This document shows, piece after piece, positions 10,240-63,354 of a DNA stretch of 64,000 bases (position 1 is its first letter; each line of letters opens with the position of its first letter). The notes below the pieces were generated by a model. That model searched no databases, was not told the origin of the DNA, and saw only the letters and a list, made by a program, of their open reading frames with translations. The stretch spans positions 1 to 64,000 of IMG/VR virus record IMGVR_UViG_3300002026_000045; one strand, written 5' to 3'. The translations under genes and the position numbers were made by a program. Origin of the DNA: a virus.

Positions 10240-10598
10240 TTTTTAAATTCCTTAAACATAACACACCCAAAATTGTAGCGTGTCATAATGTTGTGCTCAG
10301 TATCTGAGCCATCAACGATTACCTTTGAAATGTATTCGTCATTATAAGACGCTGACGACGGATGTTGACGTCCAGATATCAATGTATGCTTGCAATAGTT
10401 TACATTTCCTGCATCATAGTGATAGCCTGTGCCATCTCCGTCGCCCCAAAATTTGCATTTGTCACAGTGCATAATAATTACCAGATAATGAATACAATAT
10501 ATAAAGAAGCCCAAAAAATTATACTAAGTGCAACGCCGCACACTGTACCTCGAGCAGTTGATAATCCGTCGTCATCTTCATCATGGGCGTTAATAATG

Positions 10599-11111
10599 TT
10601 ATCCACCTTCAATCTCACCTTCTGGAGTTACGATAATTACGCGAGCAAATCCCTCTAGACGTGTAGGGCGTTGGTAGGTATTGCCCATTGTTTCACAAAT
10701 GTTAGCAGGGATTGACTTACCAGTTTCAAGTTCACGAATTTTACGCCGTGCTTCAAGTTCAGCAGTTGGGATTTCAAACGCAACCGCAGTGACCGCATAC
10801 CCAGCGTTAAGAAGTTTGTTTAGTTTATCTCGTCGCGACTTCATTGACAAGTTAGTTTGATCCCAAATCAAATTTTGCGATGCTGCCATCACTTTATTGA
10901 TTTGTGTCTCCATAAATTTAGTTGCTTCACCAATGGTAGCCTTAAAGACATCACCGTAGGTTTTGCCCATCATTTTAGCAGTTGACTCAATGTACGAGTC
11001 AGTAGAAACAAGCTGGAACCCATCCTTTGTGAGGTATGGGTCAGCCCAGGTCGATTTGCCAGAGCCAGGGACTCCGACAAGCATATATGCAATAGGTTTA
11101 ATTTTAATCAT
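10599..11111 (-). CDS. Polynucleotide kinase-like P-loop kinase (AAA_33; PseT N-terminal-like)
   Basis: LVGVPGSGKSTW, STD, WDQTNL..KSR, P...EGF. Confidence 0.85.
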   Translation of the reverse strand: MIKIKPIAYMLVGVPGSGKSTWADPYLTKDGFQLVSTDSYIESTAKMMGKTYGDVFKATIGEATKFMETQINKVMAASQNLIWDQTNLSMKSRRDKLNKLLNAGYAVTAVAFEIPTAELEARRKIRELETGKSIPANICETMGNTYQRPTRLEGFARVIIVTPEGEIEGG

Positions 11112-42070: not shown

Positions 42071-42310
42071 TCATTATTTATAGATTCTACGGCCCAATCA
42101 TGTTCCTCGCACATGCCATGTTTCTTTTCAAAAAATACAATAGTGCCCGGTTGAGCAGCACACCCCCAACCTATAGTGTCACAAATTCGACTTTTATAAG
42201 CTGAATTTTTATTCCAAGGATGCCCAACTATTTTAACTTGGTTTTTGCAGTTACAGCAGCAACGCCCTTCACTGTTGCCGTCGCCACTTGCCCAGCCATC
42301 AAAACATTTG

Positions 42311-45063: not shown

Positions 45064-47270
45064 GTTAGCTTCTCCATCGCAAGGTAGCTAGCGTTGCATC
45101 TGCTGGTGATCTAACAAACAAATTAACGTACCTGTGGCTAGTTACTAAGAAAGGAGTTTTGACTGCCCATTTCTTTTTACGCTTTTGGTTGTGCAGACCT
45201 TTTGGAATTGCTGGTCCGATATTGTCAACACACCAAGTGATTACGCGATCACGGCACTGATTGATAGACTCATCGTTCACTCTTACTTCTATTTTAATCA
45301 TTAGTTGCAATCATTTTCTGTTAAAATCTAATTCCGTTGGTTCGCATTGCAGCAAATGTGAGTCAATTGGTGTAGGGTAATCCACTAAGTACACTCTAAG
45401 TCTATACCCAGACAACCCAACATGATCAACTGTATAGATATTTCCGTTGTATTGAACTTGCGTTCCAGGGCGAAATATTTGCATATACATTAGCGGGATC
45501 TTTCTGTCAGTGTTCATCTTTTGCGTACAAATAAAATACAGTTAAGTATTTATTGTATGCTTCTGCAACAGCAGTGCTGATTTCACGAGCCTTAACATGT
45601 TTGTCGTGTTCTTCAACAATGGCTGACAATTGTTGAAGATTTGCGAGCGGCAACTCTGCTGACACAGTTGACGGCTCAGTTACAACGGCATGGTAAGAGC
45701 TCCCATACCCAGTTAAAACAGGCGTTGACTTAGGGTAAGATATATTTACGGAAATAAAGTATTTCCTGCAAAACTTGTCCACTGGTGGTTCAACGAGATG
45801 ACTCATTTAATAATCCTGAAACTCTATTTGCAAAATCAATAACGCCATCCATGTTTTCAGCAATTGCATCATACCCATGCATGTATGCATTATTGTATGC
45901 TTGTTCATAGCAAAGCTTAAACAGATCAGGGCGCAACTCATTATACTCTAACAGCATAGAGTCAAACCATATAGTTGCGGCTGCCATCGCCAAAGATTCT
46001 TGCTCTTGCTTAAATTTTTCTGCTGCTTCTTCTGTAATAGGATCAGCAACTTTTTCAAACATTTTAGAATGAAGTATTGCTTCTTCCTCAGACTCAAATC
46101 TAGTTGCTTGCCCATCTCTGTAAGCATACCATGAATATGATACAGGTGGGGGCTCAGCACACTCGACATAGTTTGCTTTATTGCAAGCTTCTTCCCACGT
46201 AATCATTGACCTGCCCTAACTAACGCAAGTAGAATATCAAACTTCTCTTTTGCATCCTTTAACCCAGGATGATTATTGCAAAGTTCTGTCAGTTTAGCTT
46301 CTTCAACCATTTTTTCTTTAACCCACGCAATAGCAGCACGAGTATCAGCATCAAGTTGAACCATTTGTGATGTGGTGTAATTAGTTGATACCACACCAGT
46401 GTGATCAACTATTTTAACTGCGTTAATACTGCCATCCCACACCATTGTTCCAGACAATGCCGGCAAGGTTGTATAAGTCGCATGCTCCATTCCTGCCCCA
46501 GTGATAATAGTGTTAATCATAGTTTGTTTGATCAATACGAGATGGAGAGAATTCCTGTTTGTAAAAATCTACAAACTCTTGCATTTCTTTAATAATAGTA
46601 ACTACATCATTTTTTGTCAAAAATATTCGATTGCTAATCTTATCATCACCATCTACATTAGCAAAATCAATATATGGCATATTTGTGCATGCCCATTTGA
46701 TTCTAAACTCTCTGTCTTTACTTAGCTTAGTCATCATTATGTTCACACACTACTTCAACTGTGCCGTCAAAAATGTAACCAACTCCGCGCAGCCATTCTT
46801 CAAATCGTGGCAGCAATTCATCCCATGTTTGCTCACCAACAATTGTGTGTTTAATTTCACGACCTGGCCCAAAGTTATCTGTTTCGGTGTCAGTCATAAT
46901 AAATTCGTATTTAATTGTCATTTGTGATCTCCGGTGTATTGCGCAATGCTTCCATAATTCTAACTTCTTCCTCGTATTTTTCTTTGAGTGTTCGAACTAC
47001 AATAAGCGCGTCCCTGGCTACGGTAGCACAAGAATCAGCACGACCATATTCTCCATAAAGCACAATGTCACCCAACGCATTGATTGCGTGGGCGACAGCT
47101 TCTTCAAGTGGGGGGCCTGTATTTTGCTCAGCTTCTTCTTCTGGAGTTTCTTGGTTCATTTTCTCCAAGATATCCTTCATTTTATCTAGCATGTCACTCA
47201 TTTTTTACCTTCCAGTGTAATAAACAATACACAGTATACGTTATATCTAAAGTAACTGCAACTTATTTGA

Positions 47271-47582
47271 TTAAACTTGGATGTTTACTATTGCACTTTG
47301 TTCTTGCTGTTGTTTAATAAAACGCTGCACATCTTTATATATTTGCAAGGATGCTTCAGATGGAATTTGAAGTTCAACTTCATGAGTTACCGAATTTGTG
47401 TACTTCATTACAGTAACCGGAGGGTCTTTACTCATTTCATAAGTTCTATTAATTTGAGCAGGCGACCGATTTATGTCAGGCGACACTTTTTCAACTGCCA
47501 ACGTTGCTGGTGACAGTTTATTGATTATGTGATTAACTAATGTTGCTGCATTTGGTGCAGTAGGTATTTGGTTTAATTGCAT
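47271..47582 (-). CDS. flaG: FlaG-like protein
   Basis: C-terminal VTVMKYTNSVTHEVELQIPSEASLQI...AIVNIQV resembles the FlaG pattern VVKVxDxxTGEVIRQIPxEExL...GLLVDxxV; lies immediately downstream of flagellin. Confidence 0.65.
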   Translation of the reverse strand: MQLNQIPTAPNAATLVNHIINKLSPATLAVEKVSPDINRSPAQINRTYEMSKDPPVTVMKYTNSVTHEVELQIPSEASLQIYKDVQRFIKQQQEQSAIVNIQV

Positions 47583-47601
47583 GTTGCACCTCCATTAAAT
47601 T

Positions 47602-47624
47602 AGTGGCCAGTAATACTGGCCACT
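47602..47624. terminator. Perfect 10 bp hairpin between flagellin and the flaG-like gene
   Basis: agtggccagt-aat-actggccact. Confidence 0.65.
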
Positions 47625-47629
47625 TTTAC

Positions 47630-48451
47630 TTATCTAATTAAACTAAGCAAATATTGTGGGAATTGATTGACAATTCCTAACGTAGACGACATGAGTTGTT
47701 GCCTGCTTTGTAGCAATGACAATTGATTTGACAATTCTGCAACATCAGCGTCCTCAATTGAAGAAATTGAACTCTTTAGTGAGAGCTGAGTTGTAGCAAC
47801 ATTTTCAGCAGTCTTTTTCAATCCTGAAATCTGAGAGCCAATAATTGCCTGGTTTGTTCCAACAGTAGCAGAGGCAGTGTCAAGAGCAGTCATTGCGGCA
47901 GCCGCTTTTGTCGCGTCAGTAAGATCGATTGTGGCAGCATCAATATTCAAAGTAGCGCCGTCTGATTTTGCAGTAGCAATTGTTCTTGTATCACCAGAGT
48001 TGATGCCAGTTTGAATGTCTACGGATGCAGCCGCAGCACCAATTAAATTTTGACCAAACAATTTTGCACTGTTAGCAGTATTGTCTAATTGTTTTTGCAG
48101 TTCAGCAAAAGAACTTTGCAGTGCTGTGCGTTGATCTGCAGATAACAACGATGATGATGCTTGCGTAGCCAAATCCTTCATCTGTGTAATGATAGACTGC
48201 TGGGAGTCTAATGCGCCGTCAGCAACAGACAATAACGATTGTCCTGCACTAATATTCTTAGTTACAGCATTGTAACTTGATTGCTGCATTTTAAGAGATG
48301 ACAAGATAGCCATACCTGCAGGGTCGTCAGATGCAGACAAAATACGCTTGCCAGAACTAATCTGTGCAGATACTTTTTGTAATTGAGTAGCGTTGTCGTT
48401 TAAATTGCGAGCAATAGACGAAGCTAATGTGTTGGAGTTTAGTGATAACAT
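47630..48451 (-). CDS. fliC: Flagellin (short, D0/D1 only)
   Basis: N-term LNSN...RNL...ISSGKRILSASDDPAGMAI; MKDLATQAS; FGQNL; IQTGINSG; C-term SSIEDADVA...NQFPQYLLSLIR. Confidence 0.9.
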   Translation of the reverse strand: MLSLNSNTLASSIARNLNDNATQLQKVSAQISSGKRILSASDDPAGMAILSSLKMQQSSYNAVTKNISAGQSLLSVADGALDSQQSIITQMKDLATQASSSLLSADQRTALQSSFAELQKQLDNTANSAKLFGQNLIGAAAASVDIQTGINSGDTRTIATAKSDGATLNIDAATIDLTDATKAAAAMTALDTASATVGTNQAIIGSQISGLKKTAENVATTQLSLKSSISSIEDADVAELSNQLSLLQSRQQLMSSTLGIVNQFPQYLLSLIR

Positions 48452-48541
48452 GATGGTTCCTTTAATATAAGAAACCGCATAGTTAAATGTGGCGGATTAT
48501 TACATCCTAATTGATAACAGAAGTTACTCTGTTAAAAATAT

Positions 48542-48868
48542 TTATCCTTCTAATGACAATACTGTAGAAATAAAACCAATTTCGTCATTAAAAGTTATTG
48601 GTGACTGATGAATTAACACTTTGGCAGTCGCTACCTTAACGAGCAACTTTGTAAAAAATTTGCTGAATATTGCAAATTCATCTGGTGGCAATGATTCGTT
48701 TAAATTGTCGCATACATACTCTAATACCTCAGCAATGTTGGCTAATGACGACAATCTAACTGCTTTGGAATTGGATGTAGTCTGAGCAATAAGCAAATGC
48801 TTTTTAATTCCAACAAACAATTGATTAGACAATTGTTGTTTGGACATTTGTTCTTGGTACGCAATCAT
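48542..48868 (-). CDS. fliS: FliS-like flagellin export chaperone
   Basis: AYQ..Q...QL...LF.GI...L..A; helical NIAEVLEYVCDNLN, FSKFFTKLLVKVATA, DEIGFISTVL match the FliS helix pattern; adjacent to flagellin. Confidence 0.55.
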   Translation of the reverse strand: MIAYQEQMSKQQLSNQLFVGIKKHLLIAQTTSNSKAVRLSSLANIAEVLEYVCDNLNESLPPDEFAIFSKFFTKLLVKVATAKVLIHQSPITFNDEIGFISTVLSLEG

Positions 48869-49452
48869 AAATTTGCTTCTTCTTCTTGTGTTAAGTAATA
48901 CCCTTTTTCTTCAGCATGGGTATCGCACAACGTTCGTATCCAGCCGCCGCCTCTACTACGACCTACTGCGCCACAAATTTCGCAAGTCACAGATGACATT
49001 GATTCAGCCATTGAGATTAGCCCGTCAGTGAACTCGTTGCCACCGCTAACATAAAACCGCAATGCACCAAATTTCTCTTTGACTTGTGACACTACTACCT
49101 GCTCAACAACTGGTCTAATTTGTGTATCTGGCGCACGTAATAGTAGCTCTTTTTTATATTTCTCTAACGTAGACGGAGGTAATGATAGGTCAGCATAATA
49201 CTCATTAAATGGCCCCCAATCACCTGCTACCGCTGATGCTCTGCGATGCTCTGTTGCAAGATCATATGCGTTAGATTTTACACTTGAGTCAATGTGCCAT
49301 TGAATATTGCTGCATAGCTTGTCAATGATATGATACCAACCATCTTCACAATCAAACCCCCAGCACATACACGTTTCTGTCATGTCTGCATGGCGATTTT
49401 TAAAAAGCAATGGATATTTTGTGCAAAGTTTATTATCTAATTCTGGGCTCAT
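48865..49452 (-). CDS. Conserved hypothetical phage protein
   Basis: CEDGWY.II...QVKEKFGALRFY...CEICG...GWIRTLC. Confidence 0.7.
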   Translation of the reverse strand: MSPELDNKLCTKYPLLFKNRHADMTETCMCWGFDCEDGWYHIIDKLCSNIQWHIDSSVKSNAYDLATEHRRASAVAGDWGPFNEYYADLSLPPSTLEKYKKELLLRAPDTQIRPVVEQVVVSQVKEKFGALRFYVSGGNEFTDGLISMAESMSSVTCEICGAVGRSRGGGWIRTLCDTHAEEKGYYLTQEEEANL

Positions 49453-49756
49453 ATTGTTTACCTGTTATTTACAGTTTAACTAATTGTGCAATAATTTGCA
49501 ACTTATTCGAACTCATCTGGATACACAATAGCAGAGGGTAAGGCAAGTCTGAATAAAATTGCAACATCTGGGTCTTTAATCCAAAACATATACATGTTAC
49601 CGTATGCTTTTGCCCACCATTTCATAGAGGACTTATATGGCCAGGCTGGCGGCGATGACCACAATTTCCCTTTGCCAATATTTTCACGCAACCATCTAGC
49701 GCCTTCCATGTACTGAATTAAACTATGCAGTATAATAGGCGGAATCTTTTTGGTAC

Positions 49757-49996
49757 TCATAAAAATTTCTCATCTGGATCAGCGAACGGGCACTCAAACA
49801 TAAACCCTTGGAACTTATCTCCCCAGCCAGCAGCCGTATGCTTTAAATCTGATTTAGTAGGATAGTGGCGCAAAAGTGACGCGGCACGATGCCTAATATG
49901 TTTAGGCAGTCCAGGCGTCACTTTAGAGTCTGCTAAGTTCTTTAAGAAAATTTCAGTCTCTATAACTGCATTTGATCGTTCAAACGGTAGAGTCAT
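49757..49996 (-). CDS. BPSL0761-like small protein
   Basis: MTLPFERSNAV...FL..L...P..IR..A..LLRHYP. Confidence 0.6.
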   Translation of the reverse strand: MTLPFERSNAVIETEIFLKNLADSKVTPGLPKHIRHRAASLLRHYPTKSDLKHTAAGWGDKFQGFMFECPFADPDEKFL

Positions 49997-50402
49997 ATCC
50001 CCACCCGTTGGCTTTTATTAGCTTAGACTTAACTCTGACATTAGGCTGCCTATGCTTTTTAGTGTCAGTAAATCCCATCATAACGCCAACCTCTGCGACT
50101 GCGCCGCTGCGGCACAACCCTGCGTGACAGTGCACGACGACATTCATGTCTTTTTCTAGTGCATGCTTCAGCAATCTCACAATCTCAACTGCTTGTGCAT
50201 CTTGAATCTTTGTTTCGTCTGGAAATTCACACTCGTTTTCCGCGTCAAGAAATTCAAAGTGATGGACTTCCCTAAACTGGTTGTATGGATTAATTACCCA
50301 CCCTGCTGGGTCGGTAATTTGAATAAGCATGCTATTATCACCAGCGTCTTTGTGACAACCATTGGCAACATCTGCTGCCGCAACATTTTGTATCCAGGCC
50401 AT
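49980..50402 (-). CDS. Protein-tyrosine/dual-specificity phosphatase-like protein
   Basis: VVHCHAGLCRS (CX5R); FLD loop; PN motif. Confidence 0.85.
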   Translation of the reverse strand: MAWIQNVAAADVANGCHKDAGDNSMLIQITDPAGWVINPYNQFREVHHFEFLDAENECEFPDETKIQDAQAVEIVRLLKHALEKDMNVVVHCHAGLCRSGAVAEVGVMMGFTDTKKHRQPNVRVKSKLIKANGWGYDSTV

Positions 50403-51061
50403 TATGCAAACTCCACTTGTTGATCTGAGATAAGATTCCAAACTTCTAATTTATAATGCTCATCTGCCATTGCTGGAAAATCTGCTGCAAATAACTCGAT
50501 ACTGTAGTTATAGTTTCTCCCGTTACCGCTACCGCCACTACCAGTTTGTACAATTGTGCTGTCAAAGTAGTCAGAGCCACTACCATCGTATGGTCGAGGA
50601 ACTTTGTGATCGCTATACCCTGCATCAATTTGAAACTTAATTTGCCCTCTCCAACCTGGGTAACCAGTTGGTGTACCAGGTGGTGAACGGCGAGGGTCCC
50701 AATTAGTTACCCCGTTTCGGGGGCATCTATGACTGTTGCTTACGCTGTCACTCCAATGCGCAGTTATAGCAATTGCTACTAATTTGTGGGCCGTGTCCCT
50801 TGCTTTACGCCATGTGTTATGCGCAGCACCATTTGCCGCAAACCATTTCCAGTTGTCTTTAATAAACTGCTCTAAGTTGGCAATACTTGTCACAGTGTTG
50901 CCCATATCAATCATAAACTGATTTCGTTCTGCGTTAACTTTTGCGATTTTTCGATCGTCAGAACGGAATTCAGCAAGTTTACGCAAGTGTTTTAGGTACT
51001 TGCTTTTATCTTCAAACAGTTTACCGTCTGTATCACTTTTCCAAACTAATACTTGGCTCAT
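50402..51061 (-). CDS. Hypothetical phage protein
   Basis: VSNSHRCP.NGVTNW...YPGWRG motif. Confidence 0.65.
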   Translation of the reverse strand: MSQVLVWKSDTDGKLFEDKSKYLKHLRKLAEFRSDDRKIAKVNAERNQFMIDMGNTVTSIANLEQFIKDNWKWFAANGAAHNTWRKARDTAHKLVAIAITAHWSDSVSNSHRCPRNGVTNWDPRRSPPGTPTGYPGWRGQIKFQIDAGYSDHKVPRPYDGSGSDYFDSTIVQTGSGGSGNGRNYNYSIELFAADFPAMADEHYKLEVWNLISDQQVEFA

Positions 51062-56407: not shown

Positions 56408-56471
56408 TGTAAATCTCCTTATATAGCAAGTTTTAATTATGTAGGCCCTTATCAGCACCTACACAATTATT

Positions 56472-56490
56472 TATGCTGCACTGCAACATA
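56472..56490. promoter_or_regulatory. TGCA-rich palindrome (PhaR-box-like) overlapping a late promoter
   Basis: tatgctgca-c-tgcaacata, one mismatch from a perfect inverted repeat. Confidence 0.5.
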
Positions 56491-58668: not shown

Positions 58669-58677
58669 AGTAAATAT

Positions 58678-59265
58678 TTATAGTTGACCAGTCTGAGATT
58701 TAAATTTCTGCATAAACAATTTATACGAAGTAATTGAATCTTTTGGTTGCTCAAATTGTTGTAATCGTTCCAATGAGACGTCTGGCATGTCGGGCCAATC
58801 TCTTCCACGAGACGGCATAAATGCGTGTGCTTCAATTTTCTGAGCAATTCTATCAGCCCGCTTAATAAGCTCTTCTTCTTCCTTACTTGGTGGTTCAATG
58901 TCAAAAGATGAATAGATTGCAGCCATTAATTTTGCTTCTAGTGCTTTAATGTGCGGGCGCAATTCTGGTATTCGCTTAATTGGACTAGGCAAATCTCCAG
59001 TATACACTTCAGCAGCATCATGCAATAATCCAAGCAATACAAGTCTGCATCTGTCTATACTTTGATCTTCAATCTCGGTGTTTAGTAACAACTCATCTGC
59101 AACGAAAATTGAGTGCTGTGCTACATTGTATGGTACTGCGGTAATAGTGTGACCACAAAAACGTGCCATTCTTGATAACCCCCACGCAATGTCTTCAATG
59201 AAGATTGAGTCTGGGTCAGGGTCAGACACGTCAACTAATCTGCCAGTAACAGTTTCTAAGAACAT
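58678..59265 (-). CDS. HD-domain phosphohydrolase (YfbR/5'-deoxynucleotidase-like)
   Basis: RFCGH...VAQHS...LLHDAAEVYTGDLPSP.K...AD. Confidence 0.88.
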   Translation of the reverse strand: MFLETVTGRLVDVSDPDPDSIFIEDIAWGLSRMARFCGHTITAVPYNVAQHSIFVADELLLNTEIEDQSIDRCRLVLLGLLHDAAEVYTGDLPSPIKRIPELRPHIKALEAKLMAAIYSSFDIEPPSKEEEELIKRADRIAQKIEAHAFMPSRGRDWPDMPDVSLERLQQFEQPKDSITSYKLFMQKFKSQTGQL

Positions 59266-63288: not shown

Positions 63289-63354
63289 TGAATATTTATC
63301 CTTGCTAACTTAACATTTTAGCAAGAGATAACTTATAAATCAAATGCAATGAGT

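Follow-up and report, generated by a model that had tools for sequence, protein, structure and literature searches.

The window analysed here comprises 64,000 nucleotides, the first 64 kb of the 104-kb IMG/VR virus record IMGVR_UViG_3300002026_000045, an incomplete metagenomic contig that originates from a microbial mat and is estimated to be ~55% complete. An earlier note, made from the letters of this stretch, had proposed a phage-encoded flagellar filament module at positions 47271-48868, consisting of a fliS-like, a flagellin and a flaG-like gene. All three open reading frames (ORFs) were confirmed at precisely these coordinates; they are intact, lie on the minus strand and are read in the order FliS-like, flagellin, FlaG-like. 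The surroundings are also as first described, the neighbours being phage genes or ORFs without assigned function within a virus record. The window further encodes a T4-type RNA ligase, an ATP-dependent DNA ligase and tail-fibre-like proteins. Feature coordinates are collected in Table 1.

The middle gene encodes a 273-aa protein that had been singled out as a flagellin with both conserved termini, and the Pfam search bears this out. Flagellin_N (PF00669) matches residues 5-137 at 94.5 bits (E 7.7e-27, cut-off 26.6; profile positions 2-134 of 139) and Flagellin_C (PF00700) matches residues 187-272 at 45.7 bits (cut-off 23; profile positions 1-86 of 86). Because both Pfam domains are matched and the C-terminal profile is fully covered, the D0/D1 ends are complete; a linker of ~50 aa joins them, and D2/D3 are absent. 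The NCBIfam search gave a near tie between short flagellin subfamilies (116.5 bits over the full length) and the hook-junction paralogue FlgL (TIGR02550, 104 bits on the N-terminal half). No NCBIfam curated cut-off was reached (best 116.5 bits versus a cut-off of 347), and by these scores the window flagellin falls outside all named NCBIfam subfamilies. A hidden Markov model (HMM) of bacterial flagellins scored 155.7 bits end to end on the window protein, while an FlgL HMM scored 72.3 bits and did not reach the C-terminus, the two models being built from 71 bacterial flagellins and only 5 bona fide FlgL proteins. No FlgL sequence falls inside the phage flagellin clade described below. Judged by these profiles, the 273-aa protein is certainly a flagellin and not its paralogue FlgL. 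Among phage families, it matches the flagellin-like phrog_16088 of PHROGs (E 1.4e-12), which has no assigned function.

The upstream gene encodes a 108-aa protein in which the earlier note saw the helix pattern of FliS. That part of the claim stands as a fold, but not as a family match: the window protein has no match in Pfam, PHROG or NCBIfam, and PDB sequence searches with 6- and 28-member profiles of its family returned no FliS. An AlphaFold (AF2) model, for which six relatives were included, confidently shows a bundle of four helices, with a predicted local distance difference test (pLDDT) score of 83.9. When this model was compared with the PDB by Foldseek, FliS chains ranked first, with a template-modelling (TM) score of 0.76 and a root-mean-square deviation (rmsd) of 2.7-2.8 Å to 6gow_E and 5maw_E, both B. 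subtilis FliS from its complex with flagellin; cytochrome b562-type bundles reached only TM ~0.52. The E-values of these FliS matches are weak (~0.04). After structural re-alignment (VIA), the eight best chains were all FliS, with Z 11.2-14.7 and rmsd 2.0-4.2 over 93-106 residues.

Sequence profiles of the wider family point weakly in the same direction. An exhaustive profile search recovered 29 representative relatives of the FliS-like protein, and a viral profile scan with the 6-member alignment returned only loci already known. By hhalign, the whole family aligned with 64 bacterial FliS sequences over 105 columns (P 7.8e-4, probability 25%), and a distant subgroup of it did so at P 6.1e-4 with a score of 26.9, against at most 15.9 for 30 column-shuffled nulls; these FliS alignments span 92-105 columns, and the two subgroups match one another at 99.7%. 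One member, P0155, matches TIGR00208 fliS at E 0.0043 (17.2 bits versus a cut-off of 53.75), 1 of 28 members matches Pfam FliS (E 0.038), and three weakly match FlaF in Pfam (best E 0.0038). In a protein-atlas search the three nearest feature clusters were all FliS (scores 0.78-0.82, a lead only), and one structural row of the atlas was FlaF at TM 0.71. A Tyr lies within the first 20 residues in 27/28 members; the distant ones start Y-x-Q...TDTPxQL, resembling bacterial FliS (for example AYAQ...TSSPAEL). In C. jejuni and Salmonella, FliS docks on FlhA through its residues Y7, Y10 and N13/V13 (PMC11536152).

The complex between the FliS-like protein and the flagellin C-terminus, which the earlier note had suggested modelling, was predicted with flagellin residues 185-273. 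It reached an interface score (ipSAE) of 0.43 versus 0.01 for the best control, with runs agreeing in at least 75% of contacts and a partner pLDDT of at least 78. Of 80 solved complexes, 58 reach the mark that it passed, as do 2 of 110 mismatched pairs, and the range up to 0.60 holds just 7 of the 80 solved complexes but both passing mismatches. The prediction thus lends weak support to binding, and since FliS-flagellin complexes have already been solved, the pass may reflect likeness to them. From fold, profiles and gene context together, the 108-aa protein is very probably a FliS-type flagellin chaperone; it is not placed in the curated FliS family.

The downstream gene encodes a 103-aa protein whose sole Pfam match is FlaG (PF03646; 16.6 bits, E 0.009, below the cut-off of 23.8). 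Its 12 relatives share 47-85% identity with it, FlaG heads the Pfam matches of 11 among the 13 family members (best E 3.5e-4), and one relative carries the JGI name FlaG/YvyC family. When the family was aligned by hhalign with six canonical FlaG proteins from bacterial loci, a 45-column core was matched at P 6.6e-5 and 29% identity; the cross-control against the FliS profile gave P 0.029. This core includes the T-x-EV-x-x-IPSE motif. The EVxxQIPSE motif reported earlier is indeed present, as HEVELQIPSE, and it aligns with the motif of canonical FlaG. A seed HMM of two bacterial FlaG sequences matches the window protein at E 6.7e-6, and the protein-atlas search scored 0.92 with 190 shared features, 24 of 30 matches being in FlaG clusters. 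A PDB sequence search found no FlaG match. That the 103-aa protein is a divergent FlaG is well supported by these comparisons. Both flanking ORFs lie below curated thresholds; FlaG was reached by profile-profile alignment and FliS by structure.

Several lines of evidence place the cassette in phage rather than host DNA. Its GC content (0.387-0.393) is in line with the rest of the window. Assembly chimerism had been raised as a concern, and per-run contigs from four samples, all from one microbial-mat study, bridge both junctions (phage ORFs-FlaG-flagellin and flagellin-FliS-like-195-aa ORF) at 100% identity and even depth. The flagellin family comprises more than 115 clusters at 90% identity, related at 45-86% identity and nearly all 271-275 aa long. 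All of these clusters are metagenomic, on contigs of up to 318 kb, and beyond them identity falls to 40% or less. In IMG/VR, 18 loci lie on viral contigs; two of their genomes are a 328-kb one with terminal repeats (100% complete) and another of 318 kb (91%). Among ~185,000 prokaryote species, each scanned through one genome, no cellular flagellin exceeded ~34% identity over the full length, so the flagellin has no near-identical chromosomal counterpart in this set, and the trio or pair is present in related phages. In a tree of the family with its 71 nearest bacterial flagellins, the phage proteins form a 48-tip clade without a single bacterial member (split support 0.997, midpoint root on the split); 16 loci with phage-clade flagellins were available for comparison. 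The proposal of a domesticated phage system, as opposed to transduced host DNA, is thus sustained by its recurrence in phage contigs, its own clade, the lack of a close copy in the cellular genomes scanned and the bridged junctions.

The carriers themselves are apparently large, virulent T4-like phages, as far as their gene content tells. Three relatives encode a T4-type gp23 capsid protein, and no tyrosine integrase match (PF00589) occurs in the window record or in four relatives, of which three are at least 90% complete, other integrase types lying outside this search. In GenBank phages, 46000-50500 had no DNA match, and neither the FlaG-like nor the FliS-like protein was matched by tblastn; the flagellin matched there at only 31-37% identity, on small unannotated fragments. 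In BFVD the sole match was a homologue without characterisation (49% identity, TM 0.91), carried by an uncultured Caudovirales phage.

Comparison of the related loci modifies the idea of a three-gene module. The trio is present in the window, but the conserved unit is the FliS-like/flagellin pair, and the third gene varies between FlaG, a compact FlgK and none. A FliS-like gene lies directly upstream of flagellin in 15 of the 16 phage-clade loci. FlaG of the window type is found in the window and in the closest trio-bearing relative (L098/L005, a 76-kb contig that has also retained the 195-aa neighbour), and FlaG nearer the canonical type in L102 and L107. Seven loci carry a compact 340-aa FlgK-like gene instead (Flg_bb_rod, Flg_bbr_C and FlgK_D1; TIGR02492 E 3e-29), and no third gene was detected in the remaining ones. 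The FlgK-like gene (L003:6864-7886 (+) and six other loci) lies directly downstream of flagellin, in the place of FlaG, and its product combines rod-type N- and C-termini with the FlgK D1 helical domain. It was not found in the 104 kb of the window record. Rod- and hook-type genes are missing altogether from the complete 328-kb relative, and a lone FlgK-like gene represents them in the 318-kb genome (91% complete). With only filament-distal parts encoded, these phages must rely on the basal body and export gate of the host.

The cassette contains the same three protein types as bacterial filament-stage loci (flagellin, flaG, fliD, fliS) and the FliS/FlaG/FlhA docking system of Campylobacter jejuni (PMC11536152). 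Its FlaG core motif aligns, and its FliS-like protein has the FliS fold and an N-terminal Tyr segment. It differs in gene order, since FliS lies downstream of flagellin in the bacterial loci compared; in the lack of a sigma-28 promoter and of any fliD seen in the window cassette, for which no FliD-directed search was made; and in its two accessory proteins, far under their family thresholds, and its separate flagellin clade.

Expression signals of the flagellin gene also set it apart from host flagellar genes. T4 late transcription uses TATAAATA promoters read by gp55, and a box of this type, GATAAATA, overlaps the stop codon of the FliS-like gene. Across the window the number of such boxes is not above chance (14 versus 12.6 expected). 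Their placement is tight: 11/14 lie on the coding strand, and 10 of those 11 are no more than 100 nt upstream of a gene start, with none within genes (random expectation for a position near gene starts 17.5%, P 2.5e-7). A similar box occurs in 7/14 flagellin leaders of related loci. By box sequence and tight position upstream of starts, and in keeping with the T4-type capsid of relatives, the GATAAATA box behaves like a T4 late promoter. The leader that it would produce, 87 nt, is the longest among its late-box genes; the other nine within 100 nt have 4-26 nt. Four BATAAATA boxes, at 63293-63300, 58675-58682, 56468-56475 and 42075-42082 (all minus strand), end 4-9 nt before start codons, and five further late-type boxes lie 20-26 nt upstream of starts. 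The spacing of the former suggests that late mRNAs behind boxes 4-9 nt from the start are leaderless or near-leaderless.

The 87-nt flagellin leader is predicted to fold into three hairpins, with a minimum free energy of -19.7 kcal/mol (z -3.5; 0/200 shuffles equally stable). Leader helices were compared through per-sequence folds, the MAFFT alignment having lost the helix register. A hairpin with a GTAAYA loop recurs in 8/14 loci on six different compensating stems. The third hairpin pairs GGUUUCUU with the Shine-Dalgarno sequence AAGGAACC, and this anti-Shine-Dalgarno helix is kept with compensatory changes in L094 (GGUUUUCC:GGAGAACC), L096 (GGUUCUC:GAGAACC) and also L098. The conserved leader RNA of the window is also present in the flagellin leaders of L094-L099 and L101. 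An Rfam scan of 47100-49100 returned no family for the leader, only a chance miRNA row. No sigma-28 element (TAAA-N13-17-CGATA type) was found in the 160 nt upstream of flagellin in 14 loci, and scans of the module and its surroundings for sigma-70 promoters and terminators did not exceed chance. From these signals, expression of the flagellin appears to depend on a late-type phage promoter and a structured leader, and not on the host flagellar regulon.

Translational control through a flagellin leader has bacterial parallels. FlaF and FlbT exert it in Alphaproteobacteria, and some FliS-like family members weakly match FlaF. The CsrA-FliW system does so in Bacillus and Campylobacter (PMC6070490, PMC5466977). 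Shared with these systems are the long leader, the last hairpin covering the Shine-Dalgarno sequence and a candidate flagellin-binding helper next door. In contrast to them, no csrA, fliW or flbT was seen in the window cassette, and a CsrA site in the leader is not supported generally, as the GGA is unconserved and lies in a stem rather than a loop.

Table 1. Features of the filament cassette and its surroundings in the window (positions of the 64-kb stretch).
Feature	Position	Strand	Basis
Cys-rich phage ORF, 195 aa, CxC...CxxC pattern	48865-49452	-	ORF call
FliS-like four-helix-bundle protein, 108 aa; flagellin chaperone candidate	48542-48868	-	fold, context
T4-type late-promoter-like box GATAAATA	48539-48546	-	box scan
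Structured flagellin leader, 87 nt, three predicted hairpins	48452-48538	-	folding versus shuffles
Leader 5' hairpin	48534-48515	-	fold
Leader GTAAYA-loop hairpin	48507-48494	-	fold, recurrence
Leader hairpin predicted to sequester the Shine-Dalgarno sequence	48476-48455	-	fold, recurrence
Minimal flagellin, 273 aa	47630-48451	-	Pfam Flagellin_N + Flagellin_C above threshold
10-bp GC-rich hairpin, then GGAGG ribosome-binding site for flaG	47602-47624	.	47-nt flagellin-flaG spacer
Divergent FlaG, 103 aa	47271-47582	-	family + profile-profile matches

The genes around the cassette add some context. The stop of the upstream 195-aa ORF overlaps the FliS-like start by 4 nt (ATGA, 48865-48868), as the earlier note had observed, and by this overlap the two genes are translationally coupled. 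The ORF itself has no family match in Pfam, PHROG or NCBIfam; in L098/L005, a 190-aa ORF homologous to it (E 1e-34) precedes the FliS-like gene by ~430 nt. Two genes upstream of the 195-aa ORF, a 153-aa dual-specificity/tyrosine phosphatase-like protein is encoded at 49980-50441 (-), which matches Pfam Tc-R-P at 28.3 bits, barely over the cut-off, and phrog_5614 at E 1.4e-9. Between flagellin and flaG, the GC-rich spacer hairpin was terminator-like in the scan only on the opposite strand; because its T-tail on the coding strand is weak, it may be only a partial terminator or an mRNA 3' stabiliser.

Further genes were noted elsewhere in these genomes. Outside the window, the same genome encodes a stand-alone CheY-like receiver (L111:1501-1836, genome 76107-76442, +; Response_reg 88.7 bits), with CheY and DivK types among its nearest NCBIfam matches. 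The nearest relative with the trio (G010) also encodes one, and in the complete 328-kb genome (G007) there are two receiver matches, of which one is stand-alone. The CheY-like receiver may be part of the same motility programme. In FlgK-type relatives, a conserved 594-aa protein without family match (L003:3129-4913 (+)), which recurs weakly in L103/L104, and an 80-aa DUF6552 membrane protein (L003:4965-5207 (+)) are encoded just upstream of the FliS-like gene; both may belong to the cassette as additional members. At L005:8392-8847 and 10532-10921 (+) there are two Cys-rich ORFs of HNH endonuclease type with DHINGN motifs. They flank the region just downstream of the L005 cassette, a hint that homing endonucleases may drive mobility of this region.

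On balance, we consider it probable that this is a phage-owned filament-stage cassette that acts through the host flagellar type III export gate and builds filament constructively. Late in infection, when the sigma-28-dependent supply of the host would no longer be in control, the phage would make its own flagellin. The FliS-like protein could hold the flagellin C-terminus and dock the complex on host FlhA via its N-terminal Tyr segment; once exported, the phage flagellin might polymerise on existing hooks or filaments, thereby replacing or extending the host filament. Campylobacter FlaG binds a neighbouring site on FlhA, antagonises FliS-flagellin docking and is secreted (PMC11536152). The phage FlaG may likewise tune the exported amount, and hence filament length, and may preferentially throttle host complexes, and the FlgK-carrying relatives would supply the hook-filament junction. 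The roles put forward in the earlier note (to remodel, cap or poison filaments, to exclude competitor phages or to perturb regulation) are hypotheses; because relatives carry a compact FlgK instead of FlaG, the cassette is taken to build rather than poison filaments. Candidate pay-offs are that the infected cell is kept motile, or that the altered filament surface no longer lets flagellum-binding phages, competitors or own progeny, adsorb.

A more ambitious version, namely a self-contained, riboregulated kit of flagellin, chaperone and either a length regulator or a junction protein with which virulent T4-like jumbo phages convert host flagella into phage-specified filaments late in infection, is possible but rather doubtful. 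Such a swap could mask the flagellar receptor, sparing competing flagellotropic phages or the phage's own progeny from being lost on doomed cells, or it could sustain swimming of the infected cell once expression of the host's genes has broken down.

A number of points weigh against constructive filament building through the export gate. The proposal presumes a flagellated host. Late timing would also fit a virion component. Canonical FlaG lowers flagellin export, and its co-expression is not obviously constructive. The FliS-like protein lies under every curated FliS profile threshold (PF02561/TIGR00208), and its structural margin is modest, the next non-FliS bundle following at Z 10.8 and helical bundles scoring high easily. 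The AlphaFold model of the FlaG-like protein is too poor (pLDDT 57.8) for a fold test.

Interference with the host, in which the products would act in the cell to stop flagellar assembly or rewire its regulation, appears unlikely, yet it is the alternative that survives best. FlaG would block FlhA, and surplus flagellin with the chaperone-like protein would titrate host FliS, FliW/CsrA or FlaF/FlbT-type regulators, so that energy is saved or the infected cell is immobilised. The known role of FlaG is indeed antagonism at FlhA, the weak FlaF matches of three FliS-like members and the FlaF row of the atlas would suit such a function, and the flagellin leader is predicted to be translationally gated. 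A decoy, however, needs no complete D0/D1 ends kept at 271-275 aa across nearly all of the >115 clusters; an FlgK-type junction protein as found in relatives is useful only for starting a filament; and FlaG is missing from many relatives.

We regard as improbable a virion-associated use, in which flagellin, with FlgK-like adaptors in relatives, would form or decorate a phage fibre while the chaperone keeps monomers. A late-type promoter is what structural genes have, an FlgK-like adaptor adjoins flagellin in 7 loci, and phrog_16088 is a flagellin-like phage family. The cassette nevertheless lies among small non-structural ORFs, distant from the tail-fibre genes, and no role is known for FlaG other than at the export gate. 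Polymerisation of flagellin, moreover, normally requires prior export and takes place beneath a cap; no cap or other axial gene was found, FliD not being among those searched for.

Still less credible is a junction module made up of FlgL (HAP3) and an FlgN-type chaperone. The TIGR02550 score on the N-terminal half and the FlgK-like neighbour in relatives would speak for it, but we rejected this FlgL/FlgN assignment on the end-to-end flagellin HMM score of 155.7 bits against 72.3 bits for the FlgL HMM, and on the lack of FlgL in the phage clade; the partner fold matches FliS, and the presence of FlaG is likewise in keeping with a filament module. An artefact, whether host DNA captured recently, a contaminated bin or a chimeric assembly, can be dismissed as far as these data reach, as nothing besides the incomplete metagenomic nature of the record speaks for it, GC matches the flanks, contigs from four samples of one study bridge the junctions, other viral contigs including the complete 328-kb genome carry the cassette, and no cellular flagellin exceeds ~34% identity.

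In the literature search, phage-encoded flagellin was treated only in papers on TldR and FRphi. FRphi is a temperate Enterobacter siphovirus that carries TldR and FliC_P (Walker et al., Nat Microbiol 2026, PMC13418256; Wiegand et al., 10.1101/2023.11.30.569447). There, an RNA-guided repressor silences host fliC, and FliC_P is made in lysogens, exported by the host machine and replaces the filament (PMC13418256). FliS is not mentioned in the FRphi paper, and a FlaG protein, a jumbo phage or a metagenomic family did not turn up (PMC13418256). Both systems thus have a phage-encoded flagellin for the host machine, a principle shown to be real in FRphi. They differ in that FRphi is temperate and has TldR, whereas no integrase of the type searched was found here in five related records, that of the window included, and relatives have a T4-type capsid. 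No candidate for TldR, a nuclease-dead TnpB, was seen: at 43.1-50.4 kb there is no ORF of at least 200 aa besides flagellin, and the neighbours are without such domains in Pfam and PHROG. The cassette, in turn, has a chaperone-like gene, FlaG or FlgK, a late-type promoter and a leader predicted to be gated.

Phage flagellins have so far been known experimentally only from temperate gut prophages that swap the filament in lysogens through silencing of a host gene. The cassette extends the idea of a phage flagellin to large, apparently virulent T4-like environmental phages, and it does so with a different logic from the prophages, combining a chaperone-shaped partner, FlaG or compact FlgK, phage late transcription and an mRNA leader that is predicted to be gated. 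Large and tightly constrained in length, the flagellin family lacks annotation as a phage family, and it makes up a compact natural collection of minimal flagellins that come with a matched chaperone-like partner. It is widespread and probably lets virulent phages rebuild or retune the host swimming filament. If the export model is true, the cassette would offer a tractable system in which a lytic virus reprogrammes an organelle of a bacterium, with a bearing on motility, flagellotropic phage adsorption and virus-host dynamics in microbial mats. Should the conversion of host flagella into phage-specified filaments also prove true, lytic phages would have their first described programme of organelle remodelling, one that would be widespread across mats and other metagenomes.

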